15,765 nucleotides of DNA from a virus (Duplodnaviria; Heunggongvirae; Uroviricota; Caudoviricetes). Under the pieces are notes generated by a model, which worked only from the letters and a program-made list of their open reading frames with translations, made no database searches and was not told where the DNA came from. Position 1 is the stretch's first letter, and each line of letters begins with the position of its first letter. Positions 41 through 15,162 of this stretch are shown here, in pieces. The stretch spans positions 1-15,765 of IMG/VR virus record IMGVR_UViG_2571042870_000013. One strand, written 5' to 3'. The position numbers were made by a program, and so were the translations under genes.

Positions 41-3000
41 TCATTTTCCTAATTCTCCAGCTAAAAGTTCAGCCTGCTTCAAAACAGTCTCTGTGGCGAG
101 CAATGACATATCAGGCGGATAACCATATTTTTTGAGCAGACGTTTTACCACCACGCGAATTTTTGCTCTTGCTGCTTCTTTCACTGTCCAGTCAAGACTG
201 ACATTGTTGCGGATAGCCTCCGTAAGTACGACTGCCAGTTCTCGTAGTTTTTCCTTTTCCATTAACTCGCGAGCACTGTCGTTATCTGCAACAGCAGAAT
301 AGAAGGCATATTCATAAGCGCTGAGGTTTAACTGGCTGGCAAGGCTGTCAGATTCCTGGATAGTCTTGGCAAGCTTGATTAGCTCATCAATTACCTCCGC
401 TGCGGTCAGTACCTTGTTCTGGTAGCCATTGATTGCAGAGGTCAGCATATCAATCAGTTTTTTGCCTTGGGTGATACTTTGATTCGAGCGAACCTTGATC
501 TCGTCAGAAAGCAGTTTTTTAAGCGTTTCCAAAGCAATATTTCTGTGTTGGTAATCCTTCATTTCCTGAAGGAATTCTTCAGAAAGAACGGAAATATCAG
601 GTTTTTGTATCCCAGCAGCGTCAAAAATATCAACAACTTTATCGGTAACCAGAGCCTGATCGATAGTCTGTTTTACCCGAACTTCGAGACTGTCATTGTG
701 TTCTTCTTCTGATCCGTCTGAGTTTTCAGTAAATTTATTCAGTCTGGCTTTTACTGCCTGGAAGAATGCTACTTCGGGTGCCGCTTCCATTGCTTTATCG
801 TGCGGTGTCGCCAATGCAAATGCCTGCGATAAGGCTGCAACCGCAGCGAGGAAACGCATTTTACCTTTACCGTTATCCAGCCCTAAAATATGGTTTTCTG
901 ATTCAAGAATAATTGTCAGGCGTTGTGAGGTAGTTGCGGCAAAGTAAGCTTTGTAATCGTATCCATGCATCATGCCTTCCAGGATTTCCAGCTTTTCCTG
1001 CATGAGCGTTACGGCTTCTTCCTGAACCTCAGCAGGATCTCCACGTCCACCTGCATCAGAGTAAAAGGAGAGGGCTTCTTTTAAATCAGAGGCAATGCCC
1101 AGATAGTCAACAACCAGACCGCCTATCTTATCTTTATACACACGGTTCACACGGGCAATTGCCTGCATAAGGTTGTGGCCTTTCATTGGTTTGTCGATAT
1201 ACAGCGTATGCATGCTGGGAGCGTCGAAGCCGGTTAACCACATATCACGCACTATCACCAGTTTCAGCTTGTCGTCGTCATCCTTCATACGGTTAGCCAG
1301 AACCTGACGTTCTTTTTTTGTGGTGTGGTGTTTGGCAATTTCTGGCCCGTCAGCAGCAGAAGAGGTCATGACGACTTTTATTATACCGTCATTTAAATCA
1401 TCGCTGTGCCATTCAGGTTTTAAGGCTATGATTTCTTTATATAGTTCAGCAGCAATACGGCGGGACATGGTAACAATCATGCCCTTACCATGATCGGCAT
1501 TGGATTTTAAGCGCTGCTCAAAGTGCAGAACCATATCCGCCGCAATCGCTTTAATACGTTTTGAACTGCCAATCAAACCTTCGATTCTGGCCCATTTAGA
1601 ACGTTCTTTTTGCGTGAGCGTCAGTTCGTCCTCGTTAAACTCATCATCAAAGTCTTCAATAAGCTGACGACCTTCATCACTGATGGCAATTTTGGCAAGA
1701 CGGCTTTCATAAAAGATACGAACTGTTGCACCATCTTCAACGGCCTGCGAGATATCGTAGATATCAACATAGTTACCAAAAACAGCAGGCGTGTTGACGT
1801 CCGTTTTTTCTATGGGGGTTCCGGTAAAGCCGAGATAGGTCGCATTAGGTAAGGCATCACGCATATATTTGGCAAAGCCGTAAACGGTGCGTTTACCTGT
1901 TACGTTGCCTTCGCTGTCTTTCACGTCAACTTCTTTGGCGCTGAAACCGTACTGGGAACGGTGTGCTTCATCAGCGATAACGACAATATTGGTTCTGTCT
2001 GACAACAACTCATAGATATTGCTGCCATCATCAGGCTGGAATTTTTGAATAGTAGTAAACACCACACCGCCAGAGGCGACACGCAAATATTCTTTGAGTT
2101 CTTCCCGGTTGTTGGCCTGTTTTGGTGTCTGACGAAGTAGCTGGGTCGCGGAAGAGAACGTACCGAATAGCTGATCATCTAAGTCGTTACGGTCAGTAAT
2201 CACAACAACTGTCGGATTATCCAGCGCCAGCACAATTTTCCCGGTATAAAACACCATCGAAAGCGATTTACCGGAACCCTGAGTATGCCAGACTACGCCC
2301 GCTTTGCGATCTCCGGTTTTTTGCGCATTAACAAGATCTTTACTGTTACGTCCCTGCTGGCGCAGTGCCACTTCGGCAGAGGGGGAGTCCGCATTCACCG
2401 CTGAGGCACGAATAGTGGAAAGAACTGCTGCATTGACCGCGTAGTACTGGTGATAAGCCGCCATTTTTTTAACAGTACGGATACTGATAATCCCTTTGCT
2501 GTCTTCATGTTTGCTGGCCTCAAACACGATAAAGTGGCGGATTATATCCAGCAGCGTTACAGGATTAAGCAACCCCTGTAATAAAACTTCAAGCTGTGGT
2601 TGGGTACTGGTGGCTTGCGTTTTACCGTTAGCAGTTTTCCACGTCATATAACGACTGAAATCGGCAGAAACCGTCCCCGCTTTGGCTTCCAGCCCGTCAG
2701 ATATCACATTAAAAGCATTGTAGTTAAACAGACCGGGGATTTGGTTCTGATAGGTTTTAATCTGATTATAGGCACCTGTTACCGTTGCATTTTCGTCAGC
2801 GGCATTTTTAAGTTCGATAACGACTAATGGCAGGCCATTGATGAATAAAATAAGATCAGGTCGGCGGGTATGGTTGCCTTCTTTGATGGTGAGCTGATTA
2901 ATGACCAGAAATGCATTATTAGTGGGATCGTTAAAGTCGATCAGGCTGGCCAGTTCTCCTTGTGTATTACCATCCTTGCTGACTTCGATATTGATTCCTT

Positions 3001-3280
3001 CGGTCAAAAGGCGATGAAAGGTTAGATTGTTTGCCATTAGGTCAGGTGAGCTGATCTGCATCACCTGTTTTAGAGCTTCTTCACACTTCTGCTCACTAAG
3101 GTGCGGGTTAATTCGTTGCAATGCTGTACGCACTTTATCTTCAAGGATAACCTGCTGATAGCTACGTAACGGATTGATTCCACTGGGTTCAATGTCCGGG
3201 CCGTAAACATACTCATAGCCCAGCCCTTGCAGGTGCTCAATTGCCATTACTTCAATATCGGATTCGGTCATCTTTGCCAT
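41..3280 (-). CDS. hsdR: Type I restriction enzyme R subunit (endonuclease/translocase) HsdR
   Basis: 1079-aa ORF. N-terminal PD-(D/E)xK-like nuclease motif (PDLILFINGLPLVVIELK), helicase motif I (HTQGSGKS) and DEAH-type motif II (VVIADEAHRSQ), which is the hallmark architecture of HsdR. SD-like AAGGA about 10 nt upstream of the ATG at 3278-3280. Lies directly downstream of hsdM-hsdS on the same strand. Confidence 0.92.
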   Translation of the reverse strand: MAKMTESDIEVMAIEHLQGLGYEYVYGPDIEPSGINPLRSYQQVILEDKVRTALQRINPHLSEQKCEEALKQVMQISSPDLMANNLTFHRLLTEGINIEVSKDGNTQGELASLIDFNDPTNNAFLVINQLTIKEGNHTRRPDLILFINGLPLVVIELKNAADENATVTGAYNQIKTYQNQIPGLFNYNAFNVISDGLEAKAGTVSADFSRYMTWKTANGKTQATSTQPQLEVLLQGLLNPVTLLDIIRHFIVFEASKHEDSKGIISIRTVKKMAAYHQYYAVNAAVLSTIRASAVNADSPSAEVALRQQGRNSKDLVNAQKTGDRKAGVVWHTQGSGKSLSMVFYTGKIVLALDNPTVVVITDRNDLDDQLFGTFSSATQLLRQTPKQANNREELKEYLRVASGGVVFTTIQKFQPDDGSNIYELLSDRTNIVVIADEAHRSQYGFSAKEVDVKDSEGNVTGKRTVYGFAKYMRDALPNATYLGFTGTPIEKTDVNTPAVFGNYVDIYDISQAVEDGATVRIFYESRLAKIAISDEGRQLIEDFDDEFNEDELTLTQKERSKWARIEGLIGSSKRIKAIAADMVLHFEQRLKSNADHGKGMIVTMSRRIAAELYKEIIALKPEWHSDDLNDGIIKVVMTSSAADGPEIAKHHTTKKERQVLANRMKDDDDKLKLVIVRDMWLTGFDAPSMHTLYIDKPMKGHNLMQAIARVNRVYKDKIGGLVVDYLGIASDLKEALSFYSDAGGRGDPAEVQEEAVTLMQEKLEILEGMMHGYDYKAYFAATTSQRLTIILESENHILGLDNGKGKMRFLAAVAALSQAFALATPHDKAMEAAPEVAFFQAVKARLNKFTENSDGSEEEHNDSLEVRVKQTIDQALVTDKVVDIFDAAGIQKPDISVLSEEFLQEMKDYQHRNIALETLKKLLSDEIKVRSNQSITQGKKLIDMLTSAINGYQNKVLTAAEVIDELIKLAKTIQESDSLASQLNLSAYEYAFYSAVADNDSARELMEKEKLRELAVVLTEAIRNNVSLDWTVKEAARAKIRVVVKRLLKKYGYPPDMSLLATETVLKQAELLAGELGK

Positions 3281-3338
3281 GCGTACTGTCCTTATTGCCG
3301 CTTAACCAGAGAGCGGGCTGTACACCCGCATAATTATT

Positions 3339-4532
3339 TTATGCTACTGATGCGATTGCTTCTTCCGCATACTGAACCCGTACTTCGCCGCTCATCAGTT
3401 TGGGAAGGAGAGTGTCGCGCAGAGATTCTATGTTTTTAATTTGTGAGTTGTTAATACTTATTTTTTTCCAGAAGAAATCAATCTGTGTAGTGAATTCTTT
3501 CACCATACACTCCGGGGGGAGTTTGAATTCTGGGCGTTGTAATCCGTCAGCCGACAGCTGATTTACAGTTGAACCGTTAGTTGCAGCAACAACTTGCTCA
3601 TGCATATCTTTGGAGCAAAGTAAATAGTACAGAAAAGCATTGGTTAAGTAACTATCGTCATTGATGCTGATTTTAAATAAATGATGCGTATATATGGATA
3701 ATTCGCTTTCTGTTTTTGGAATTATAGCAGGATACCCTATGAGTCGATATTCATGGCCCTGTTCTGTATTGGCTACAATGATATCCCCAGGCTTTATAAT
3801 ATGCCTTTCTTTAAAATCACCATTGTAGTATTTTATACCTGCACTCTTATAACCACCGCCCTCAAGTACTGAGTTCAAACTAAAAAGTGGAATGCCGTTA
3901 TCTGACGTGGTAAGGCCGGCTCCCTTGTAGCTTAATCCCTTAGCTACTGTAATATGACAATCAAGAGTCGTTATTTCCCAATCCGCATGCGTCTCTTCAA
4001 TAAACCACTGTCTAAATAGGGTTTCTGCCATGGATTCCAGAGTTTTATTCTGGCGATGAAGCAGGTCTATTTTGTCTTTAAGAGAGGACAAAATAGAGGC
4101 GATGGCTTTTTGTTCAGATTCATCAATTGGTAAGTAAAGAGGAATCAAATTTAGCGATGCTTTATTTAATTTTGGTTGAGCAGCACCTGTTAAATAAGGA
4201 GATAGATCAAGTTGTGAAAAATATTGGATTATCAATGCCGTTAAATGGGGCTTTTTAGCTTTAAGGACATGAGCGTGATTATTAACCCAAAATTTTCCAG
4301 TAGCTTCAAATGCTATAGGTGTTTTTCTGGACTTTAAGTTTTCTCCATCTTCAGAAATAAGGATGTAGCTGCCATCAAAAATATAATTGTCGATATAATC
4401 GACAATTCCTGACGCTCCATAATATGGAAAATTTCCTTTCTTATGGGCTCGTTCCATAGCACTCAAAGGAATTCTTTGTGCGTTGCAAAAATCTGCTAAT
4501 TCAGTTATACAAAAATTTCTCCACCTACTCAT
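3339..4532 (-). CDS. hsdS: Type I R-M specificity subunit HsdS (two target-recognition domains with central and C-terminal conserved spacers)
   Basis: 397-aa ORF with bipartite HsdS layout: a variable N-terminal region, a central conserved helix ([13 protein letters not shown]), a second variable region, and a C-terminal conserved segment ([14 protein letters not shown]). Its start overlaps the hsdM stop by 4 nt (ATGA at 4529-4532), indicating translational coupling. Confidence 0.88.
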
Positions 4533-6076
4533 AAAACCACCTTCGCCAGATTATCAACGATGGCTCTGTTCAGACGCGCCTCTTCTTCCAGTTGCGCTTC
4601 AAACTCAGCTTTAAGAGCCGTAAAGCGTTCTTTAAAGTCGAAATCGTCTTCTTCATCAGCAAGACCAACATAACGGCCAGGTGTCAGCACATAATCGAGT
4701 TTAGCAACTTCAGCAATGTCTACTGACGCACAGAAACCAGCGACGTCTTCGTAGTCGCCACCTTTGTTACGCCAGTTATGATAGGTATCAGCGATGGTTT
4801 TTATATCGTCGTCAGAAAGTACTTTGGTACGACGATTAATTAAATGACCGAGATTACGGGCATCAATAAACAGAATTTCTTTACTACGATCACGATACTG
4901 GTTGCTGTTATGACGGTCACGGCGCATAAACCATAATGCAGCAGGGATCTGAGTATTCAGGAACAGCTTTGCCGGTAAGTTGACGATACAGTCAATCACA
5001 TTGGCATCTTTTACCAGTGCAGCACGAATATCACCTTCACCAGAGCTTTTAGAAGTTAATGCCCCTTTTGCCAGAACAACACCCGCTTGCCCTTTAGGAG
5101 ACAAGTGATACAAAAAATGTTGCATCCATGCAAAGTTAGCGTTGCCAGCAGGTGGAATGCCATATTGCCAGCGGGCATCACCACGAAGCTGCTCACCAGA
5201 CCAGTCGGAAACGTTAAACGGTGGGTTAGCTATGATAAAATCAGATTTCAAATCTTTGTGAGCATCGTTAAGAAATGAACCTTCATTATTCCAGCGAACG
5301 TGTTCAGAATTAATCCCACGAATTGCCAGGTTCATTTTTGCCAGACGCCAAGTGGTCTGGTTGGACTCCTGCCCATAGATCGAAATATCGTCAATATTTC
5401 CCTGATGTGCTTCTACAAATTTTTCTGACTGAACGAACATACCACCAGAACCACAGCAGGGATCAAAGACACGGCCTTTATAGGGTTCCAGCATGTTAAC
5501 CAGCAGGCTTACAATAGATTTTGGCGTATAGAACTGGCCGCCTTGTTTGCCTTCTGCCAGTGCAAATTCACCTAGGAAGTATTCGAATACGTGACCTAAA
5601 ACGTCAGCAGAGCGTGCTTTGGCATCTCCTAGTGCAATGTTGCCAATCAGATCTATCAGCTCACCCAGAACAGTGGCGTCGAGGTTTTGTCGGGCATAGA
5701 CTTTCGGCAACACACCTTTTAACTGTGGATTGCCCGCTTCGATAAGCTCCATCGCATCATCAACCATCTTACCGATTTCAGGAAGCTTGGCCTTAGAAAT
5801 CAGATAGTTCCAACGTGCAAGCTCAGGGACAAAGAAAACGTTGTAAGCGGTGTACTCGTCTTTGTCTTCCGGATCAGCACCTGCGAACTCGCCTTTACCG
5901 GCTTTCAGCAACTCATAATGAGATTCAAAAGAATCAGAAATGTACTTAAGGAAAATGAGGCCTAGTACGACGTGCTTGTACTCGGCTGCATCAATGTTTT
6001 TACGCAGTTTGTCTGCCGCTTTCCACAGGATGACCTCTAACGGGTCTGTTTTGATTTCTTTAGGTTTTCTGGCCAT
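4529..6076 (-). CDS. hsdM: Type I R-M N6-adenine DNA methyltransferase subunit HsdM
   Basis: 515-aa ORF with a SAM-binding motif I ([12 protein letters not shown]) and catalytic motif IV NPPF ([12 protein letters not shown]), typical of gamma-class N6-adenine methyltransferases of Type I systems. First gene of the M-S-R operon. Confidence 0.92.
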
Positions 6077-6224: not shown

Positions 6225-6557
6225 GCGGGATTGTAGATGTCAGGTCATTGCCGTCAATGGAGCCAGTGTCATTGGCATAATTGCTGCACAGCCGATGCCA
6301 CGCGCACATTCGCTAGTTCACTGTGGTTCATCGTGTGTACTACACCAGTACGCAGTCCGGGAAGTAACGGCATGGCAGAATCGTTTGTAAAGACGTTCAA
6401 GCGGGATTATGTGTACGTAGATGATCTGCTGGATGCAGTCTAAATGATGGAAACAATGGCAGAATAGATAGAGGATTATAATAATCTGCATCCACACAAG
6501 GGGTTGAACATGAAATCGCCACGCGAATATCGTGATGCCATATTAGCAGTTAATTAG
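6225..6557 (+). pseudogene. Remnant of a DDE (rve/integrase-core type) IS transposase C-terminus, interrupted by two in-frame stop codons
   Basis: A single reading frame gives ...TPVRSPGSNGMAESFVKTFKRDYVY...DLLDAV(stop 6441-6443)...MAE(stop 6465-6467)IEDYNNLHPHKGLNMKSPREYRDAILAVN(stop 6555-6557). The SPxxNGxxESF...LK and YNxxRPH...SP.EY-like motifs are the conserved C-terminal signature of IS3-like DDE transposases. The N-terminal catalytic part is missing and the frame is broken. Confidence 0.6.
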
Positions 6558-6997
6558 CCGTGTCCGTTTTAGCAGGGACAACTCCAGTATTCAAAAAAGC
6601 TTTCTTAGTGCATATGCATGAGGTGAATAGATGTACAGGCTATGACAAACCATAGTTGTAATTTTTAATGTTTAAAATTCTCCGTTACAGTAGGACATTC
6701 CTTGTACATTAAATTCCATCTAAGGTTGAATTTTTAATTTAATAAGGTCGCAATCTAAAATGATGTGTATGGGGTTATTTGTAAGATGATTTTTTATTTT
6801 TGATAGTGGTGATTAAGGGAGCGGGTAATGTTTGTCTATTCAAAAATATAGAGATTCAAGGTTGGTAGCAGTTTGGCTTCTTTTATAACCGAAGGGCAGA
6901 AAAGCAAGGGGAACTCGAAGAAGCAAGCGCAGCGGCTTCGCAGAGTTAGCCCTTGCTTCTCTTATAATTGGCATTATTCATTCAAGAACAATAGGAT

Positions 6998-7017
6998 CTT
7001 CGCTTGTACAAGCGAAG
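6998..7017. repeat. Perfect 20-bp palindrome CTTCGCTTGTACAAGCGAAG
   Basis: Read directly from the sequence: arms of 9 bp around a central TA, with perfect dyad symmetry. Lies in the gene-free spacer downstream of the ParB-like operon. Confidence 0.9.
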
Positions 7018-7672
7018 CTATAATAAAAACAATCAATTAATAATTTTAAAAGTATTAAACAAGAACCTATTGACATTCATAAAATACAAGTTATTTATAA
7101 TGTATGCCATAAATAAAAAGTTTTATGTCATATGTATCCTGCACTATGTGCAGTTAATGTACCACTTGTCCCATAGATGGGAATATTGGAAAGGTTACTT
7201 TGTTTTGAAGTAGCCTTTCGTCCTTCAATATTAACGATTACTTATTGCTATTACCAAGTCCAGTCGAATCGAAGAACATCTTTTATCTGAAACGACTCCT
7301 AATACCCGGTTAAAGCCACAATATCTCTCGCATACGTAGACCAAAGAAAAATTATGATATTAACTATGTGATTTTTTTTAGTGTTAAGTTGAATAATTAA
7401 ATACTGGAGAGTTTTCTGTGCACTACCAATTGCTGGTTCATCTGTTCTGCCGCTGATGTTTCTGACGAATCTCCCGGTGACACAGAACTGTCCCTCTCTA
7501 CCAGCCTTTATTCGACTCAATGTCCGGCTGCTGATACGCAGTTATCCCTTCGTATCAATGACTGACACTTAAACGTAATGCTTTGGTTGCTGGCGTATCT
7601 GACAGCTTCTTCGGCGTGAAGGTCGTTGTGTAAGTATACTTCTTGGTTTATTTAGGCTATATAAAACCATGA

Positions 7673-8569
7673 CTATGACTTGCTGTTTTCAGTAAGAGTC
7701 TTATCATCCAAAGAATTTATTCTAGAAATTCTTTTTAACTCATTAAGATAATCAACCTCGTTTTCTAAGAACCAATGAAGAACTTTAGAATTGCCAAGTA
7801 ATTTATTAATATATGACTGGATTATAACGAATTTCAACATATCTGAACCATACTCGGTTTGAAGCTTTTTCGTTTCTTCCGAAGTTGTTGCCATTTCTTG
7901 TTCCAGACGAAGTATGGTTTTTTTTATGTCCTTTTTATAGGGAGTGTTTTTCCCTTTATTTACTATCATCGATGCCGGTGTTGCATCCAAGATGCTCATT
8001 GCAAATTTTTTACTATAATTATCAAAATTAATCATTGTACCGACTGCTTCAATTTGGCGAATTGGCTTCATTTTCCTCAAAACGTCAAATGTAGCCTTAG
8101 GTATAGGTTTATCAGAAAGTTTCGCAATTACACTTGGATCTATGCCGTTCATCACATTCGCTTTATCTTTTATGGCATCAACAGATATGCCCAAAGCAGC
8201 ACTAAGTTTTTCAATTGATACTTTTGCCAGAGACTTAATTATCATTCTATGTTCTTCAACTACATTTATATGATTCACTTGTTTGTTAGGAGTGAAAGCA
8301 TCATCTATGCTCGAAAGTATACATGGAGCTTTTTCTATACCTAAGTCTTTTAAAGCCTCAACCCTTAAATGGCCATCAAGTATCTTAGTGACATCTTTAT
8401 CTTTGTCATAGAATACTATTATTGGTTCAATAATACCTAAGCTTTCGATAGAGGTAACTATTTGATGATATTTATGGCTTCGCTTTACGTTTTCTAATAA
8501 TTCCTTAGATGGAATTAACTTATTAGTTTCCAGGTAAATAAAATTATCGCCAAAACGTATCTGAATCAT
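7673..8569 (-). CDS. Divergent ParB/Srx-fold protein (ParB-like partner 2), function unknown
   Basis: 298-aa ORF. N-terminal region resembles the ParB N-domain (IEPIIVFYDKD...ILDGHLRVEALKDLGIEKAPCIL) with a DGxxR-type box, followed by an HTH-like segment (SIEKLSAALGISVDAIKD). It lacks the arginine-rich ENxxRR box present in the upstream paralogue. Its start overlaps the upstream gene's stop (ATGA at 8566-8569). Confidence 0.6.
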   Translation of the reverse strand: MIQIRFGDNFIYLETNKLIPSKELLENVKRSHKYHQIVTSIESLGIIEPIIVFYDKDKDVTKILDGHLRVEALKDLGIEKAPCILSSIDDAFTPNKQVNHINVVEEHRMIIKSLAKVSIEKLSAALGISVDAIKDKANVMNGIDPSVIAKLSDKPIPKATFDVLRKMKPIRQIEAVGTMINFDNYSKKFAMSILDATPASMIVNKGKNTPYKKDIKKTILRLEQEMATTSEETKKLQTEYGSDMLKFVIIQSYINKLLGNSKVLHWFLENEVDYLNELKRISRINSLDDKTLTENSKS

Positions 8570-9462
8570 TTTAATACCTCTTTGTTTACTGGGGTTAATA
8601 TCTGAGATGGTAGTTCTGAAAGATTCTCTTGTTCAAGTATATGTTGAAAGCTTTTATTCATCATTATGATGTTAAAAATCTCATTTACTATTAGTAGGTT
8701 GGTTTTTATGAATTTTGAGTTGTTATAAACAGATTTATGTTCAGCGATACTATTTTCATAAAGCTCAATCAACTCCTCTGCAGTCATCCTTTTTGATGGT
8801 TTGTGATAATAAAATCCGGCTGCTTTTGCACCTTTATTCCCAACTGTTCTTTGATTTAGAATGTGTTTTATCTTTATAATGTCCCGACTTTTTATTAATT
8901 TTTTATCATATGCTTCGGTAAGAATATCTTGTGCTTCCTCAGTTTCACATCTTGCAAATTGCACTGCGAGATACAGAGGCAAATTACCCCGTTCGACTGC
9001 TGAGAGAAGTTTATGCTCTCCCTTATCAAGTAGCATATTAATACTGCTCACCCAGTTCGATGAATATCCAGTAATCTCACTTATTTCGGAGTCTGAAAGT
9101 CCTCTGATTTTCATGTCTTTAATCACCTGTAATAACTCATTAGAACGTGGTCTTCTCCTTGCAATGTTTTCAACTAAACTCATAACGTAAGCATCTTCTT
9201 CTGATACATCTCTTATAATTGCTGGAATAATAGTTTCACCTAATGCAACGAGAGCCTCTATTCTCCCTTGACCACAAATTAAAGCATATTTGAAATCGCC
9301 TTCATCAATAGCTCTTACGCTTATTGGCTTGCTTAATCCTCTTTTTTTTATGCTTTCCTTTATTTCTTCATGCACTACCTTATTTCTTGTTCGTGGGTTA
9401 AGAAATTTTATTTTTGCAATCTCAATTTGAATTATTGGGAATTCATTTTTTTCAGGCAGCAT
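8566..9462 (-). CDS. ParB/Spo0J/KorB-like DNA-binding protein with HTH (ParB-like partner 1)
   Basis: 298-aa ORF. Colinear with ParB-family N-domains: NPRTR, PISVR, GQGRIEALVALGETIIPAIIRDVSEEDA, then the arginine box LVENIARRRP, then an HTH (GLSDSEISEITGYSSNWVSSINMLL). Its start overlaps the end of the serine recombinase gene by 11 nt (9452-9462). Confidence 0.72.
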   Translation of the reverse strand: MLPEKNEFPIIQIEIAKIKFLNPRTRNKVVHEEIKESIKKRGLSKPISVRAIDEGDFKYALICGQGRIEALVALGETIIPAIIRDVSEEDAYVMSLVENIARRRPRSNELLQVIKDMKIRGLSDSEISEITGYSSNWVSSINMLLDKGEHKLLSAVERGNLPLYLAVQFARCETEEAQDILTEAYDKKLIKSRDIIKIKHILNQRTVGNKGAKAAGFYYHKPSKRMTAEELIELYENSIAEHKSVYNNSKFIKTNLLIVNEIFNIIMMNKSFQHILEQENLSELPSQILTPVNKEVLK

Positions 9463-11008
9463 ATAGTTCCCTCACTTTCATGCGAGTAATAATTTGTAGA
9501 AGTTTATCAAGATTATCAAATCTATAGAGATCTAATCGAATGTTGTTTGTTTCCGTCATGCACATTTTATTATATTCGTTTTCAATCTTTGGTATGATAT
9601 AAAAATCAAGAGGTGAAATATTTTGTGAATTCATTCGTATAACAATTGTTATGTCTGCTTTCTGTGAGTTATCAAACCGGACTTTCCATCTAAGTTTACC
9701 TGATTTCATATGTATGCATTTAGTAACAAGGACGGAAATTAAAAACTCATCATTGATGTAAAGCATTGGGGCATATTTATACTCGTCTATATGACAGTTA
9801 CTTTTTAAAATTTCACCCTTAAAATCCTCAATTATCTCTGAGTAAAATGATCTTAGTGCTTCATTTATTTTGAGATAGCTGTAATCATGTTCTGGCTTAT
9901 AACCAATCAAAGTATATGCTCTTAAAAGACCACCAAATCGGGTTCTATAAACAGAAGATGAAGGGCCTGTATCATCTTCATCAATGATAAAGCCTGATAG
10001 TTTTCCATTAGATTCTAATTTTTGTTTTAGTTTTTCTAATAGATCTTCATTAGTCAAATGAATGGATCGGAGCTGAATTATTTCTTGAGCTTTATTGTAT
10101 TTTTTCTTTGAAATAATAGGTTTATATGCCTTGTCACATCTAACCCATTCATGTTTGGGGTTTTTTACAAGCCTACTTTTTAATTTAGATGAGGTTTTGT
10201 TATATATGTTGTTTCCAATATATTTTTCATTTGTCAAAATTTGATGTATTTTTGCACGAGTCCATAATGTTCCATTTTCTGCAGGTATGTTCTGTTCATT
10301 TAATCTCTCAGCAATAATGAATTCTGGGACGTTATTATCTATAAAGAGATCATATATTCTATTTACAATTTTTATTTCATTTTTTGGTCCCGGAATTAAT
10401 ATTACCCTATCTGTTTGAATACTCTTTCTTTTGCGGAAACTCAATATTTCTTTAGCTATGCCATTTTCGTCTACTAAAAGACGTCTCAGCCCATAACCAG
10501 CCATACCGCCTTGATGATAACCAAGCTTTATTAAATTTACTTGCCCTATAAATACCTTTTCAGATAGATTCCTGCTGTGATATGCAGCACTAGATCTTTT
10601 TATATTCAGTATAACAGAGGACTCTAAAGGGAAATCTTTAGTGGGTATAGGTTCGGAACAATATATAAGATCTACACCATTTCTCTCAAATAGAAAGGAA
10701 TAATATGCCGCTTCATCACTATTTTGAAAACGACCAAAACGGCTCACATCATAAAATAATACAGCCTGTATATCTATTTTCTTTTGTTCTACATCGCTAA
10801 GTAACTGCTGCAAAGAATGCCTGCCTACGATACTGACTCCGCTCTTACCTGCATCATCGTAGGTATAAGCGATTTCCATATTGTTCTTTTCAGCATAATC
10901 TTTGATATATTCGGACTGATTATGTAAAGAATATTGCTGATGGTCGGTAGACATCCTCAAGTACTGCGCGACCCTAACTCTATGATTTTTGTCATTTTCG
11001 CTAGCCAT
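9452..11008 (-). CDS. Large serine recombinase (resolvase/invertase catalytic domain plus recombinase domain plus long C-terminal extension)
   Basis: 518-aa ORF. N-terminal catalytic motif YLRMSTDHQ (putative nucleophile Ser20), DDAGKSG, and VLFYDVSRFGR; a recombinase-domain segment (GYHQGGMAGYGLRR...LWTRAKIHQILTNEKYIGNNIY); and about 230 further residues typical of large serine recombinases. SD-like GAGG precedes the ATG at 11006-11008. Confidence 0.88.
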   Translation of the reverse strand: MASENDKNHRVRVAQYLRMSTDHQQYSLHNQSEYIKDYAEKNNMEIAYTYDDAGKSGVSIVGRHSLQQLLSDVEQKKIDIQAVLFYDVSRFGRFQNSDEAAYYSFLFERNGVDLIYCSEPIPTKDFPLESSVILNIKRSSAAYHSRNLSEKVFIGQVNLIKLGYHQGGMAGYGLRRLLVDENGIAKEILSFRKRKSIQTDRVILIPGPKNEIKIVNRIYDLFIDNNVPEFIIAERLNEQNIPAENGTLWTRAKIHQILTNEKYIGNNIYNKTSSKLKSRLVKNPKHEWVRCDKAYKPIISKKKYNKAQEIIQLRSIHLTNEDLLEKLKQKLESNGKLSGFIIDEDDTGPSSSVYRTRFGGLLRAYTLIGYKPEHDYSYLKINEALRSFYSEIIEDFKGEILKSNCHIDEYKYAPMLYINDEFLISVLVTKCIHMKSGKLRWKVRFDNSQKADITIVIRMNSQNISPLDFYIIPKIENEYNKMCMTETNNIRLDLYRFDNLDKLLQIITRMKVRELYAA

Positions 11009-11178: not shown

Positions 11179-11228
11179 TATGTGGACTCAATGTCCCCAT
11201 TTGTAAATGGCTATGCTTAGTCCACATA
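11179..11228. repeat. Nested inverted repeat: 10-bp arms (TATGTGGACT / AGTCCACATA) enclosing an inner palindrome CCATTT-GT-AAATGG
   Basis: Read directly from the sequence in the intergenic region between the P4-type integrase stop (11291) and the serine recombinase start (11008). Outer arms at 11179-11188 and 11219-11228; inner dyad at 11197-11210. Confidence 0.8.
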
Positions 11229-11290: not shown

Positions 11291-12520
11291 TTATGCGGCA
11301 ATAACTTTGCATTTTTGAGACGAAACATAGTCACTCCACCATTGCATGAGAACCACCCGTTCAGTGAGATACTCTGCACGATTGTAGGCTGCAATTATTT
11401 CATCTTTCTTCGAGTGGGCAAGGGCGGCTTCTAAGACATCAGTCCTAAACTTGCCAGACTCCTCAGCAGCCGTTCTAGCAATGGATCGCATACCGTGAGC
11501 TACAAGCTCACCTCCGAAACCCATACGGATTATGGCCGCATTAGCTGTTTGTTCATGCATGTGATTGAGTGGAGCTTTGATACTGGGGAACACCCACTCT
11601 CTATGCCCGCTGATGACTTTCATTAAATCCAAAACTCGCAAAGCTTCTTTGCTCAGTGGAACTTTGTGAGGCTTCTTCATTTTCATAAACTCCGCCGGGA
11701 TGTTCCACATGCCAGTTTCAATATCAATATCTGACCATCTTGTGCGAACAGCTTCACCTGGGCGAACCCATGTGAGAAGTTGCCACTCAATCAGTAGCCT
11801 TGTTTCCAAACGGATAGAAGCATTGTTTAGAGCAACCAAGAAGCGAGGGAGTTCGGAAGGGGGTAATGCTGGCATATTCTGTTTTTTTGGCTTGCTGAAC
11901 CGTTGCCCCAGGTTGTCTGCCGGGTTGAATTCTATGAGTTCTTCTGTTGCTGCATAGCGGAAAATTTCATTCAGGCGGGATATGATGCGGCGAAGTGTTT
12001 CAAGGACACCTCGTTTTTCTATGGGTTCTAAATGCTGTTTAAGCATTTTAGGGCGAATCTCCTTAATTGGGGTATCACCCAATGTGGAAAAGATATTTCT
12101 CTCTAGGCTTCGCCAGATGTCGTTAGCATGATCTTGGGAGATGCCTGACGTTTTGACTTTCTCATCAAGCCACTTCTTGGCTACTGCTTGAAATGTATGT
12201 TCCGTGGCATCTTTCAGTGCATTGGCTTTTTGGTTGTTATGAACTTGGGGGTCTATACCATTTGTAAGCAACGACAAGTATTCATCACGTAAAGCTCGTG
12301 CCTTCGCAAGTGTAAGGTGAGGATAGGTTCCTAAGCTCACCTTAGTTCGCTTTTTGGTCACAGGCACTGCATATCTGAAATACCAATTTTTCTTCCCTCC
12401 CTTCGCCAGGGGAGCGATTCGCAACAGCAAACCATCGCCGTCAAAAAGGTCAACCTCTTTTTCGGCAGGTTTGGTGCTTTTGATTTCAGTGTCAGTGAGC
12501 TTCTTAGCGATTTTGGCCAT
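11291..12520 (-). CDS. int: P4-type tyrosine integrase (CP4-57 IntA-like); true start taken as the ATG at 12518-12520 rather than the upstream GTG at 12601
   Basis: N-terminus MAKIAKKLTDTEIKSTKPAEKEVDLFDGDGLLLRI...WYFRY matches the characteristic N-terminus of P4-family integrases. C-terminal catalytic region has HGMRS (HxxR) and AAYNRAEY (catalytic Tyr). It is adjacent to a copy of the ssrA 3' end, the classic target of this family. Confidence 0.9.
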   Translation of the reverse strand: MAKIAKKLTDTEIKSTKPAEKEVDLFDGDGLLLRIAPLAKGGKKNWYFRYAVPVTKKRTKVSLGTYPHLTLAKARALRDEYLSLLTNGIDPQVHNNQKANALKDATEHTFQAVAKKWLDEKVKTSGISQDHANDIWRSLERNIFSTLGDTPIKEIRPKMLKQHLEPIEKRGVLETLRRIISRLNEIFRYAATEELIEFNPADNLGQRFSKPKKQNMPALPPSELPRFLVALNNASIRLETRLLIEWQLLTWVRPGEAVRTRWSDIDIETGMWNIPAEFMKMKKPHKVPLSKEALRVLDLMKVISGHREWVFPSIKAPLNHMHEQTANAAIIRMGFGGELVAHGMRSIARTAAEESGKFRTDVLEAALAHSKKDEIIAAYNRAEYLTERVVLMQWWSDYVSSQKCKVIAA

Positions 12521-12618
12521 GTTTGGGACCCTCGATTTTAGGACCCATCTTCGTGGGTCCCATTCAGGGTGCCATAACTCGTAGTTCTCAGCAATTCTCA
12601 CTAGACTACAATAGACGT

Positions 12619-12650
12619 AAAAAAGCCCGCAGAGCTTGTGCTGTGCGGGC
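12619..12650 (-). terminator. Rho-independent terminator (minus strand) between the att core and the integrase
   Basis: On the minus strand the sequence reads GCCCGCACAGCACAAGCTCTGCGGGC followed by TTTTTT: a GC-rich stem of about 7 bp with a loop, then a T-run. Confidence 0.55.
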
Positions 12651-12686
12651 TTAGTAGACTTTACTGAACTTCAGTACATCAATATT

Positions 12687-12731
12687 TGGTGGAGCTGGCG
12701 GGAGTTGAACCCGCGTCCGAAATTCCTACAT
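12687..12731 (-). repeat. ssrA: 45-nt copy of the 3' end of the tmRNA gene ssrA (attachment-site core / direct repeat); not a full ssrA gene
   Basis: The minus strand reads ATGTAGGAATTTCGGACGCGGGTTCAACTCCCGCCAGCTCCACCA, which matches the 3' terminus (T-arm, acceptor stem, CCA) of enterobacterial tmRNA as I recall it. Identity stops after these 45 nt; the adjacent sequence at 12732 onward has no resemblance to the ssrA body. Confidence 0.85.
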
Positions 12732-12846
12732 ACCATTTTCACTATAACAAAAACATTAACTTGCGTTTAAAATCATCAAGTTAGTATTATCTTATGTTTG
12801 TCCGTTTTACTCATTTTTAATGCTCTGTCGCCAATCTGTCGCCACA

Positions 12847-13497
12847 TTATCCGCTGCTTGAGTTGAAATCTGTGGGTTTACGGAGATTAGATCTTATGGT
12901 TTTTTCAGCGATACGAATAGTCGAAAATTTATGCAGGTTCATCAGTGCTATACAAATCCCAAGTGCAAAAAAGTAGCTGGACATTCCTAATCTTTGCATA
13001 TCAGTAAGTTTATTAATTTTCTCTAAAATATGTTGGGTTACTAATCCTTCGTATACAAAAGGTATGGAAGTTATAAAACCGCCAATAAAATAGAATGTTA
13101 AGCTTATCAGCTTTATAGATTTTCTATATATCCAAAAGCGATATCTTTTTTTTGTCCATTTAAATATTTGTTTTTCACTACTAATAGAAATTAGTTTTTG
13201 ACACTTGCTATAGTTATCAATGTCATTAACTGGATCGTTAACACCTAAAAGAATCTCTCTCTGTTCTGGAGTTAGGTTCTTATCTTTTGTTATTGCAGCA
13301 ATACCATAATTATATGCAACTTTCTTGATTTTGGGATCTTCAGTATTCTTATATAGATTGTATGCAAACTCGCTAATGTTTTTGCGCGAGTTGAAAATCT
13401 TATCTTTGGGGAAAACCCAGCCGGATCTTACCGCGAGCATCTGTATGATCGGGGTAATTATCGCGACAGAATACTTAATTATCTCGTTTATGTTCAT
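12847..13497 (-). CDS. Hypothetical small membrane protein (accessory 'moron'-like gene) immediately downstream of the prophage integrase
   Basis: 216-aa ORF, AT-rich relative to the neighbouring int and cI genes. Hydrophobic segments (LISLTFYFIGGFITSIPFVY, MSSYFFALGICIALMNL) suggest 2-3 transmembrane helices. Its start is only 14 nt downstream of the int stop on the same strand, so it is probably co-transcribed with cI-int. No family recognised. Confidence 0.55.
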   Translation of the reverse strand: MNINEIIKYSVAIITPIIQMLAVRSGWVFPKDKIFNSRKNISEFAYNLYKNTEDPKIKKVAYNYGIAAITKDKNLTPEQREILLGVNDPVNDIDNYSKCQKLISISSEKQIFKWTKKRYRFWIYRKSIKLISLTFYFIGGFITSIPFVYEGLVTQHILEKINKLTDMQRLGMSSYFFALGICIALMNLHKFSTIRIAEKTIRSNLRKPTDFNSSSG

Positions 13498-13511
13498 GAT
13501 CCATTGTTTAC

Positions 13512-14528
13512 TTAAATTAAGTTATAAAGAGGGTTTTTTGTTACTGCATCCTCCAGGTGGTCTGGAGAGAAGTGTGCATAAATCATCGTCATTTTAATAT
13601 CTGAGTGCCCTAAAATATCACGTAAAACGAGTATGTTCCCACCGTTCATCATAAAATGGCTGGCAAATGTATGGCGCAGGACGTGGGTGCATTGGCCTTC
13701 CGGTAGTTCAATACCGGCCCGTTTTACCGCCCGTTCAAAGGCTTTTCTGCATGGTGTGAATAATTTCCCTCGGTTTTTGGGTAGCTCGTTGTACAGATCC
13801 TGAGATATCGGTACGGTACGGTTTTTTTTACCCTTGGTCTTTGTATAGGTAATCCGGTATTTCGATAGTTGATGGCCCTGCAGGTTTTCAGCTTCACTCC
13901 AACGAGCACCGGTTGCTAGGCATATTTTTGCAATCATTAGCAGACTGGGGCTTTGAGAATCAGCACAGGCATCCAGCAGACGTTTAATTTCCTCCGGGGT
14001 TAGGAACGCCAGTTCACCCTCCGTAATTTTAAATGTTGGAAGCCCGGCAAGCGGGTTGGGGGCTGACCAGTGGCCCAGCTTTTTCAGTGTACCAAAAACA
14101 GATGATAGGTTGCGCTGTTCAAGGTTTACCGTGCGGGGCTTAACGGGTGACATGAACGAGCCGTCTTCATTTTGGACCTCCCCCTTTAATCTGGCTTCCC
14201 GATATTTTGTGAAATCACCTGCTGTCAGCTCAGAGGCGATGGGATCGCCTAGACCATTACAGATAATTCTAAGTTTCGCCATCAGGCGTTTGGGGTCTGC
14301 GAGTGTTTGACCATATAGGGAATACCACTGCTCAATCACTTCTGATAATCGCCGCCGATCTTCCTTCTCACCAAGCCATGGCTTTTTGTTTACTTCGTTC
14401 ATGGTGAAGTTTTCGAATGCTATGGCTTCGCCTTTCGTGGCAAATTGCTTACGCACGCGCTTGCCATTGCGTCCATTGGGATAGCACTCACACAACCATT
14501 TTCCGTTCGGCTGTTTTCTGATGGTCAT
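13512..14528 (-). CDS. int: P2/186-type phage integrase (tyrosine recombinase)
   Basis: 338-aa ORF. N-terminus (NGKW...RNGKRVRKQF...EAIAFE) and C-terminal catalytic region (HVLRHTFASHFMMNGGNILVLRDILGHSDIKMTMIYAHF) closely parallel P2 Int as recalled (ATHALRHSFATHFMINGGSIITLQRILGH...MVYAHF). Sits directly downstream of a CI-like gene, as in P2/186. Confidence 0.9.
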   Translation of the reverse strand: MTIRKQPNGKWLCECYPNGRNGKRVRKQFATKGEAIAFENFTMNEVNKKPWLGEKEDRRRLSEVIEQWYSLYGQTLADPKRLMAKLRIICNGLGDPIASELTAGDFTKYREARLKGEVQNEDGSFMSPVKPRTVNLEQRNLSSVFGTLKKLGHWSAPNPLAGLPTFKITEGELAFLTPEEIKRLLDACADSQSPSLLMIAKICLATGARWSEAENLQGHQLSKYRITYTKTKGKKNRTVPISQDLYNELPKNRGKLFTPCRKAFERAVKRAGIELPEGQCTHVLRHTFASHFMMNGGNILVLRDILGHSDIKMTMIYAHFSPDHLEDAVTKNPLYNLI

Positions 14529-14529
14529 A

Positions 14530-15162
14530 TCAAAGGCTCTTAATGATTTTCAGTGCACGGCCTACTACCTCAATGTCATCCAGGCCACACTCAAACGATG
14601 AATCATCCTGATGCACTACTAATCTGTTTCCCGGGAGTCGAGTCAATTTAACAATGCTTTTTATCCCGTCGATATCGACTAACCACATACCATTCACTGG
14701 TGGTGTTTGGTTGCGATCTATTAAATAAGAATCACCAGAAGTAGTCACCAGCAGTAGGTTGCTTGAGTCTGAGGGGAGTATGCTGCTATCAATGATTGCT
14801 TTTCCAGCATCGACCAATAAACCACCGTTGAGAGTCGCCTTGTCAATTTCAGGAGATACTAGTTCAGAAAGAGGTACAACCTTGCTGGAGTTCACGGAAT
14901 TGATATTTTTTTTAGGTTCAATGTTTGGACCTGGCTCCCCCTGTCCGGTGGTTAGCCACAGTAAAGAAACTCCTGTTTCCAAGGCGCACTGAATCACCCA
15001 CTCTGCAGGAAAACTATCTCTTAAGTATCTGTTTGCCATGGTGCTTTTTGATGCGCCTAAGTGATCGCAAAGTTGCTGTCTGGACTTGAAATCATAGGCT
15101 GCCATTAGTCTATGGATAGCTTCTCTTCCCCCTGTATTCTCTCCAGCCTTTACCTGTATCAT
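14530..15162 (-). CDS. cI: Phage 186-type CI immunity repressor
   Basis: 210-aa ORF with CALETGVSLLWLTTGQGE and GMWLVDIDGIKSIVKLTRLPGNRL...FECGLDDIEVVGRA, closely matching conserved blocks of coliphage 186 CI as recalled. Transcribed divergently from the Cox/Apl-like and CII-like genes. Confidence 0.85.
   Translation of the reverse strand: MIQVKAGENTGGREAIHRLMAAYDFKSRQQLCDHLGASKSTMANRYLRDSFPAEWVIQCALETGVSLLWLTTGQGEPGPNIEPKKNINSVNSSKVVPLSELVSPEIDKATLNGGLLVDAGKAIIDSSILPSDSSNLLLVTTSGDSYLIDRNQTPPVNGMWLVDIDGIKSIVKLTRLPGNRLVVHQDDSSFECGLDDIEVVGRALKIIKSL

Follow-up and report, generated by a model that had tools for sequence, protein, structure and literature searches.

Results

The palindrome at 6998–7017 of the window, the term used here for the whole 15,765-nt stretch of DNA that was analysed, is a cis element of a non-coding module of integrative mobilizable islands, in which it lies between a hairpin linked to mobilization (mob) genes and an att end. 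The module moves between genera with its island, independently of the ParB/recombinase operon that neighbours it in the window. As to function, our preferred reading, to which we assign a probability of roughly 0.4, is that the palindrome serves as a duplex-DNA binding site for a dimeric sequence-specific protein, that is, as a putative operator-type dyad at a promoter-like element, as judged from sequence comparison.

The palindrome, CTTCGCTTGTACAAGCGAAG, is perfect across all 20 bases (10+10), its central TA being self-complementary, and the 9+2+9 dyad symmetry described in the initial annotation can be read directly from the letters. Its runner-up in the window measures 14 bp. A perfect palindrome of at least 20 bp arose in 2.0% of 3000 first-order Markov simulations of the window, and the symmetry, previously called improbable by chance, is accordingly unusual yet only mildly improbable rather than extraordinary, about 2% of composition-matched windows reaching 20 bp; it is conservation, not length, that makes the palindrome more than a chance occurrence. 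A search for further copies, which had been proposed, found none in the window with up to three mismatches allowed, leaving the palindrome single-copy there, and the 9-nt half-site shows no excess in the window (4 matches at one mismatch or fewer vs 3.15 expected). The G+C content around the palindrome is 0.34–0.37. The site lies 656 bp from the stop codon of the nearest ParB-like gene (7673–8569, minus strand), in agreement with the earlier figure of about 650 bp past the 3' end of the operon, and the spacer was rightly described as gene-free, since about 6600–7672 is without a credible ORF and no feature is annotated there in identical E. coli genomes.

Genomic contexts of the module

The window represents an E. 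coli chromosomal island at the tmRNA gene and is 100% identical to many E. coli strains. Its minus strand bears hsdR, hsdS and hsdM (41–6076), genes for two ParB_N/RepB proteins (7673–9462) and a large serine recombinase (9452–11008), a P4-type integrase gene (11291–12601) and a 3' fragment of ssrA (12619–12779; the Rfam tmRNA and IsrM matches are partial). The island is eroded by IS elements, and its relaxase and HTH genes are gone. A remnant of an IS3-family transposase (about 6237–6590, plus strand; integrase core domain with an internal stop) lies between hsdM and the module. A second island (12847–15162) has its own integrase gene (13512–14528), and the ssrA fragment between the two islands reveals a tandem arrangement at the tmRNA gene.

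Searching with anchors outside the palindrome, namely a 20-mer in hairpin HP3 and a degenerate 22-mer in hairpin HP1 of the structured block described below, retrieved 65 loci with 40 distinct sequences, which fall into three contexts, types A, B and C. Type A comprises 44 loci including the window and has the order ssrA, P4-type integrase, serine recombinase, ParB, ParB, about 260 bp, module and variable cargo. Beyond the cargo, at least nine type A loci (among them L024, L027, L033, L035, L048, L050, L051 and L065) carry genes for a MOB-P-like relaxase, an accessory protein and an HTH_36 protein; type A is therefore itself mobilizable, and the copy in the window has lost these genes.

About 11 loci belong to type B, a mobilizable element of 10.4 kb that has inserted into the 5' end of mutS and is complete in L008, where tyrosine integrase, HTH_17 protein, HTH_36 protein, relaxase, accessory gene, one cargo gene, module and attR follow one another. 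Its module is 83–85% identical to that of the window, with the palindrome arms unchanged, and it encodes neither a ParB protein nor a serine recombinase, the tyrosine integrase being its sole kind of recombinase. The palindrome-bearing mutS-type loci include L008, L003, L004, L013, L036, L043, L064 and L070. The att site of type B is a 27-bp direct repeat, CCATACGCC(C/A)ATGATGCAGCAGTATCT, at 1092–1118 and 11465–11491 of L008, one copy of which lies within the first 20 codons of mutS; the inserted element supplies a replacement 5' end for the gene, and the native mutS promoter and start now point into the element. The homology of type A with type B ends with ...ATACTG, eight bases inside the 27-bp repeat, so that window positions 7403–7410 look like a fossil att junction, although we can only infer this because full type A islands hold no second copy of the junction sequence. 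An apparent second copy in an O157 island, considered as an att repeat, proved to be a chance 13-mer.

Type C (nine loci) consists of the hairpin, two to three tandem units of about 104 bp and a 74%-identical block ending at the stop codon of a P4-type integrase gene; both the operon and the exact palindrome are absent. Each tandem unit begins with AGCTTCGCTTGCA...AGCTTCTCTTGCA, followed by an imperfect relative of the palindrome, in an iteron-like arrangement (L006, 4133–4330) that is also seen in L028, L040, L053, L057, L058, L069 and L071. In type C loci, too, the hsd cargo comes with the IS3-family remnant noted in the window. A fourth group (L007, L018, L019 and L020) shares only the hairpin and has a different integration module; here the hairpin lies 109–117 bp upstream of the mobAcc-relaxase operon, and from this fixed place we conclude that the hairpin travels with the mob genes. 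The palindrome, the structured block and the tail are, on the evidence of these alignments, a unit separable from the hairpin.

Outside E. coli, copies of the module with hardly any change are found in Leclercia, Kluyvera, Enterobacter, Phytobacter and Escherichia ruysiae. An origin in plasmids or phages was rejected, as blastn of the 551-bp module against 72,556 plasmids and 50,697 phages gave no match, with a 48-mer giving chance-level matches only. We also considered PIME elements as the family to which the module belongs and dismissed them, their gene set (alpA, repA, trbJ/L) being different (bioRxiv 10.64898/2026.01.12.698999).

Architecture of the non-coding module

Alignment with diverged E. 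coli copies places the palindrome in a module of about 530 bp, at approximately 6878–7410 of the window, which is non-coding, given that indels of 1–2 nt separate diverged copies. Two ORFs were accordingly discarded as coding sequences: that at 7004–7213 is interrupted by indels of 1 and 2 nt when type A is compared with type B, and that at 7299–7520 crosses the A/B homology junction and is not conserved. The left boundary is formed by the left flank of the big hairpin, TTCTTTTATAACCGAAGGGC (6878–6897, no strand assigned), which is present in every hairpin-bearing locus, including those of the fourth group; to the left of 6878 the sequence differs from locus to locus. The big hairpin itself (6898–6962, no strand assigned) is a large imperfect structure of about 65 nt that folds and has A-rich and T-rich flanks; two of its pairs are changed on both sides (C-G to U-A and G-C to A-U), in seven sequences each. 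It marks the boundary between the backbone and the variable defence cargo. We consider it a candidate for either an oriT-type inverted repeat or a bidirectional terminator/insulator.

Between the big hairpin and the palindrome (6998–7017, no strand assigned) lies a near-invariant linker (6963–6997, plus strand) that was delimited by promoter scan and conservation profile and contains a sigma-70-like match. In strain NT1N28 (L005, about 4000–4008) the end of an IS3 copy (...GGGTAGGATCA) abuts the first base of the palindrome, corresponding to window 6997/6998. The palindrome is followed by an AT-rich spacer (7018–7069), which opens with TATAAT (7019–7024) and is the most variable part of the module in both sequence and length, with indels that include a 12-bp deletion in L014, L033 and L045. 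Next comes a TTGACA hexamer (7070–7075, plus strand), a possible −35 with no consensus −10 at 16–18 nt spacing, which is kept in types A, B and C with one exception (TTGATA in L063). The block of four hairpins (7100–7219, plus strand) comprises HP0 (7100–7135), HP1 (7140–7152), HP2 (7169–7182) and HP3 (7189–7219). Alignment then defines a non-coding tail (7220–7402), about 75% identical between types A and B, and the module closes with AAATACTG (7403–7410), where homology to the mutS-inserted element ends. In the metagenomic locus L052 the hexanucleotide TGCTAT occurs in about six copies in the tail, at the equivalent of about 7250–7262, where the window has two.

Conservation of the four-hairpin block extends over types A, B and C and over several genera. 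Its fold z-score on the plus strand is −4.2, HP0 and HP3 are paired to 97–100% on the plus strand vs 84–86% on the minus strand, and HP1, HP2 and HP3 show stem-preserving substitutions among types A, B and C, with G.U pairs on the plus strand only. This strand bias in pairing, together with the compensatory changes, makes a structured plus-strand RNA downstream of the palindrome plausible. Rfam models run over 6860–7430 gave only far sub-threshold chance matches, none near a gathering score, and a known RNA family was consequently rejected as the identity of the module; block 7100–7219 is thus a candidate novel non-coding RNA of mobilizable islands that belongs to no Rfam family.

Palindrome and operon are separable

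The initial annotation had suggested that the palindrome is a parS-like binding site for the ParB-fold proteins of the adjacent operon, or a crossover site for its recombinase. Among 5,426 complete E. coli genomes, the operon, consisting of a serine recombinase gene and two ParB_N/RepB genes (7673–11008) and without ParA, is present in 637 and the palindrome segment in 463 (about 8.5%). Approximately 428 of the latter are of the operon-linked and 35 of the operon-less type, and in about 200 genomes the operon is present and the palindrome absent. Among the retrieved loci, all those of type B (at least 10), L016 and L045 have the palindrome and lack the operon, and the arms in the mutS-type elements are identical even though these have no ParB or serine-recombinase gene, which contradicts a parS-like site dedicated to the operon. 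Conversely, the operon is present and the palindrome lacking in E. coli B derivatives (L072; owing to an IS1 deletion, homology to the window begins only at 7329), in a 94%-identity class (L073; homology only from 7622), in L029, and in a distant homologue (L074; 44–52% amino-acid identity) located beside a MobQ relaxase gene. The proposed test of whether conservation of the palindrome co-varies with the operon hence came out negative, each occurring without the other in both directions; it follows that the palindrome is missing from loci that retain the operon, the comparative outcome that had been named as speaking against the proposal.

The ORFs of the window include no ParA-type ATPase, the operon being limited to the serine recombinase and the two ParB_N/RepB proteins. 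Breakpoints among some 65 loci lie at about 6962–6966, at 6997/6998 (IS3 insertion), at about 7113 and 7335, and at 7410, and none at the palindrome centre (7007/7008), which argues against a crossover site, as does the presence of the palindrome in type B without a serine recombinase. No conserved dyad was found around the distant L074 operon. The overall reading in the initial annotation therefore stands in part: its link to ParB proteins or recombinase fails on this comparison, while of the fallbacks it listed an operator is the reading that we prefer and a terminator stem a rival.

Constraint on the palindrome and its stem

Across about 50 loci the palindrome has three alleles, with the centre GTAC in 43 loci, GCAC in eight and GCGC in L070. 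Types A and B have the same arms; the L070 palindrome, CTTCTTTTGCGCAAGAGAAG, has pair 5–16 changed from G-C to T-A on both sides, T.G at pair 6–15 and C-G at the centre. When 28 distinct type A/B sequences are aligned, all cells of the palindrome helix (100%) are paired, with one double change and one U.G pair. Over all module helices, 23 cells are changed on both sides vs 7.9 ± 2.8 in shuffles (0 of 500 reached 23), and slid controls gave at most four; the covariation within the palindrome is carried by one sequence only, L070. The stretch 6945–7028 is about as conserved as the palindrome, so that the arms do not stand out, and the chance probability that 18 arm positions remain unchanged at 15% divergence is about 0.05. 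Informative comparisons are few (type A vs B, L070 and type C), since most copies are nearly identical through recent horizontal transfer.

The stem in the window has 8 bp with four G-C pairs and a 4-nt loop, GUAC, with a predicted energy of −10.2 to −10.7 kcal/mol, and lies within the range for an intrinsic-terminator stem (5–14 bp stem, 3–8 nt loop). A U-tract scan requiring at least five U in the eight nucleotides after the stem called the window on neither strand and called L003 on the minus strand (tail AUCUUAUU). In L070 the stem is weak, both as RNA (−5.5 kcal/mol, z = −0.7) and as DNA (−2.2, z about 0), and its minus-strand version, which contains a C.A mismatch, is essentially unfolded (−2.9 kcal/mol, z = +0.7). 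The type C relative, CTTCGATTGTGCAAGTGAAA, is identical at 16 of 20 positions and does not fold at all, the motif nevertheless being kept. Motifs of the half-site family CTTC[GT][CT]TTG occur at 1.6e-5 per bp outside the modules vs two to four direct repeats in type C, copies that are not independent because they lie inside the tandem duplications of about 104 bp; the L070 arms equal an alternative variant of the type C repeat, CTTCTCTTG. Moreover, in two of the three alleles the central base pair is also symmetric, which a hairpin loop would not need. As modelled, divergent copies do not keep the hairpin stable, and this argues against a pure stem-loop.

Discussion

The operator-type reading draws on the position of the palindrome relative to a sigma-70-like match on the plus strand, TTGGCA (6968–6973) and TAGGAT (6992–6997) separated by 18 nt, which directly abuts the first base of the palindrome and recurs as TTGGCA-18-TAAGAT in the 85%-identical L003. 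The match is 9/12 and a consensus match only, and the number of such matches in the window equals the shuffle expectation. We propose that this putative promoter, immediately before the palindrome, would drive plus-strand transcription. As the palindrome starts right after the match, a bound protein would cover the predicted start site, and it may in this way control whether plus-strand transcripts enter the AT-rich spacer and the structured block; once a mutS-type element has been excised as a circle, these transcripts would cross att toward the integrase gene. The TATAAT at 7019–7024 was considered as an essential −10 and dropped, as it reads TATAAC in L052 and TATAGT in L059, with the palindrome intact in both.

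A candidate binding protein common to all contexts was not found. Types A and B share a 171-aa HTH_36 protein with faint matches to RepL, DnaD_N and the N-terminus of phage O, all below curated cut-offs, and it was rejected as the binder since it does not vary in step with the palindrome, which differs between L070 and L059 although their HTH regions are identical. Among the backbone proteins of L070, a single data point, divergence is greatest in the integrase (82%) and an HTH_17 excisionase-like protein (76%), and the value of integrase divergence as a clue is offset by type A, which has a different integrase and the same arms. In the window, where the island is eroded and the relaxase and HTH genes are gone, the palindrome may consequently be an orphan site. 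With repressor operators of mobile elements (phage and ICE immunity regulators) the palindrome shares a near-perfect dyad of about 20 bp right after a −10-like hexamer, a single copy, a tolerated centre and a half-site motif that is reused in a related element; unlike at such operators, it is followed by non-coding structured sequence, no autoregulated gene is adjacent, and its promoter is a consensus match only.

Alternatively, the palindrome could be an intrinsic-terminator-like stem-loop on the minus strand that stops transcription entering the module from the right, coming from the ParB operon in the window and from the displaced native mutS promoter in the mutS element, so that cargo and mob genes would be shielded, with the big hairpin as backup. 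Minus-strand transcription heads toward the palindrome in all three contexts, the G+C-containing stem (8 bp with four G-C pairs, a 4-nt loop and about −10 kcal/mol) resembles known terminators, as does the U-rich minus-strand stretch, the type B version in L003 passes the simple scan as terminator-like on that strand (tail AUCUUAUUGU), and the double change in L070 keeps pairing. We nonetheless regard this as unlikely: the U-tract in the window (tail AUCCUAUU) is interrupted and falls below the criterion, the scan calling no terminator there on either strand, the stem is lost on the minus strand of L070 and in type C, and the big hairpin, 35 nt further on, already has a terminator-like architecture. 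A stem-loop acting on the plus strand, in RNA or in transferred single-stranded DNA, as a processing or stability element or as a secondary oriT or leading-region repeat, would accommodate the L070 changes, for these keep the plus-strand stem (U-A, U.G), and the adjoining block clearly folds on that strand. The palindrome is also at most 40 nt from the big hairpin, which in four islands lies about 110 bp upstream of mobAcc-relaxase, the usual position of an oriT, by MOB-P-like relaxase genes as for MOB-P/MOB-Q oriT repeats. Islands carrying only an oriT, the 'iOriT' islands of Ares-Arroyo et al., are reported to be common (bioRxiv 10.64898/2026.01.13.699239), and the island in the window resembles them in lacking its own relaxase. 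Judged by location beside relaxase and accessory genes and conservation with relaxases, however, it is the big hairpin that fits an oriT-type repeat and not the palindrome: the latter does not occur in sister elements whose mob genes are homologous (L007 and L018–L020, relaxases 52–58% identical) and is therefore not in the shared transfer core. Similarity to plasmid oriTs is likewise lacking, the module having no plasmid match. The predicted start of the abutting promoter falls inside the left arm, so that the transcript would not contain the stem, and the stem of L070 is weak. No conserved nick-site motif was found beside the palindrome, the minus-strand flank ATCCTAT reading ATCTTAT in type B. 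Nor does the architecture agree with that of an Frpo/ssi promoter, in which the folded single strand pairs −35, −10 and UP each with complementary segments and so mimics a duplex promoter (PMC11541004): in the fold of plus-strand DNA at 6960–7250, TTGACA pairs with TATAAT and the palindrome forms a separate small hairpin, and an Frpo-type single-strand promoter was rejected. Taken together, we hold the plus-strand stem-loop to be quite improbable.

That the palindrome has no present function, and is a hitch-hiking remnant spread with the module by recent horizontal transfer, would fit the overall identity above 97% of most copies, the equal conservation of the neighbouring 50 bp and the erosion of the island in the window by IS elements. 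We give this a small probability only, as the arms are unchanged across the 83–85% A/B divergence, the double change in L070 keeps symmetry and type C, though more distant, retains a related motif. An initiator-binding dyad beside an AT-rich unwinding region, forming a replication origin that would operate after excision and to which the HTH_36 or phage-O-like protein would bind, appears very unlikely. About 50 bp of some 85% A+T do directly follow the palindrome, keeping their composition while sequence and length vary, the HTH_36 protein has its faint initiator-like matches, and for related islands replication following excision has been reported (bioRxiv 10.64898/2026.01.12.698999); against this, those matches are all below curated cut-offs, the HTH_36 gene lies 6.5 kb from the palindrome, the HTH region does not co-vary with it, and types A and B have a single site without iterons. 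Least credible of all, and highly improbable in our view, is the parS-like nucleation site or large-serine-recombinase crossover site. The linkage in tmRNA-site islands (about 428 of the 463 palindrome-bearing E. coli genomes) and the central TA would speak for it, and a short perfect palindrome near ParB-family genes does recall the parS of ParABS systems. Set against these are the identical arms in elements without either gene type, the absence of the palindrome from about 200 operon-bearing E. coli genomes, the B strains, the 94% class and the distant homologue, and the lack of ParA, of a central breakpoint in about 65 loci and of a conserved dyad at the distant operon; in contrast to a true parS, palindrome and ParB genes also occur without each other. 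The chromosomal parS consensus is TGTTNCACGTGAAACA, and the sequence of the palindrome is unrelated to it.

The preferred operator-type dyad could also be part of a larger arrangement, for which we see a slim chance, in which hairpin, palindrome and block would together form a transferable non-coding 'establishment' cassette made up of an oriT-type repeat, a regulated new structured plus-strand RNA and the palindrome as a helper-factor switch. In such a cassette the palindrome would couple RNA expression, and read-through into the integrase gene on the excised circle, to a factor supplied by the helper, and relaxase-less, eroded islands like that of the window would, if this is true, still respond to helpers and get moved. 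With respect to the oriT-type repeat, a nick site 3' of the big hairpin was considered and rejected, because the sequence after ...GCCCTTGCT is not conserved in hairpin-only elements, and a likeness to the ColE1 and IncP nick sites was dropped, conservation giving it no support.

Taken alone, the palindrome is a small, probably regulatory, cis element, whose value lies mainly in marking the module; it adds one more case to a familiar class of elements, and of greater interest is the module around it. This module sits where, in mobilizable islands, the backbone meets the defence-gene cargo and is carried by about 8.5% of complete E. coli genomes as well as by several other enterobacterial genera. 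If the dyad controls the RNA or the integrase, it would offer a handle on how these islands sense helpers or decide on excision.

The tempting link between the palindrome and the ParB-like proteins is, on this comparative evidence, very probably wrong, and the targets of these proteins must be sought elsewhere. A dyad upstream of the recombinase gene was considered as an alternative ParB or recombinase site and set aside, as nothing there is conserved in the distant homologue. An imperfect inverted repeat with 24-nt arms that are 75% complementary and 2 nt apart lies between the integrase and recombinase genes (11179–11228) and is retained in the 94% class and not in the distant operon. PADLOC defence models matched the recombinase-ParB-ParB triad, which is also present in the E. 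coli B strains C41(DE3), T7 Express and NEBExpress, only once and weakly, with a type II methyltransferase model. Downstream of the distant operon, next to the MobQ relaxase and TraD genes, six different short palindromes occur in a run (L074, 3242–3366); one of these, CCCCATATATGGGG, is identical to HP2 in types B and C, with a weak overall similarity to the block (65–69%).
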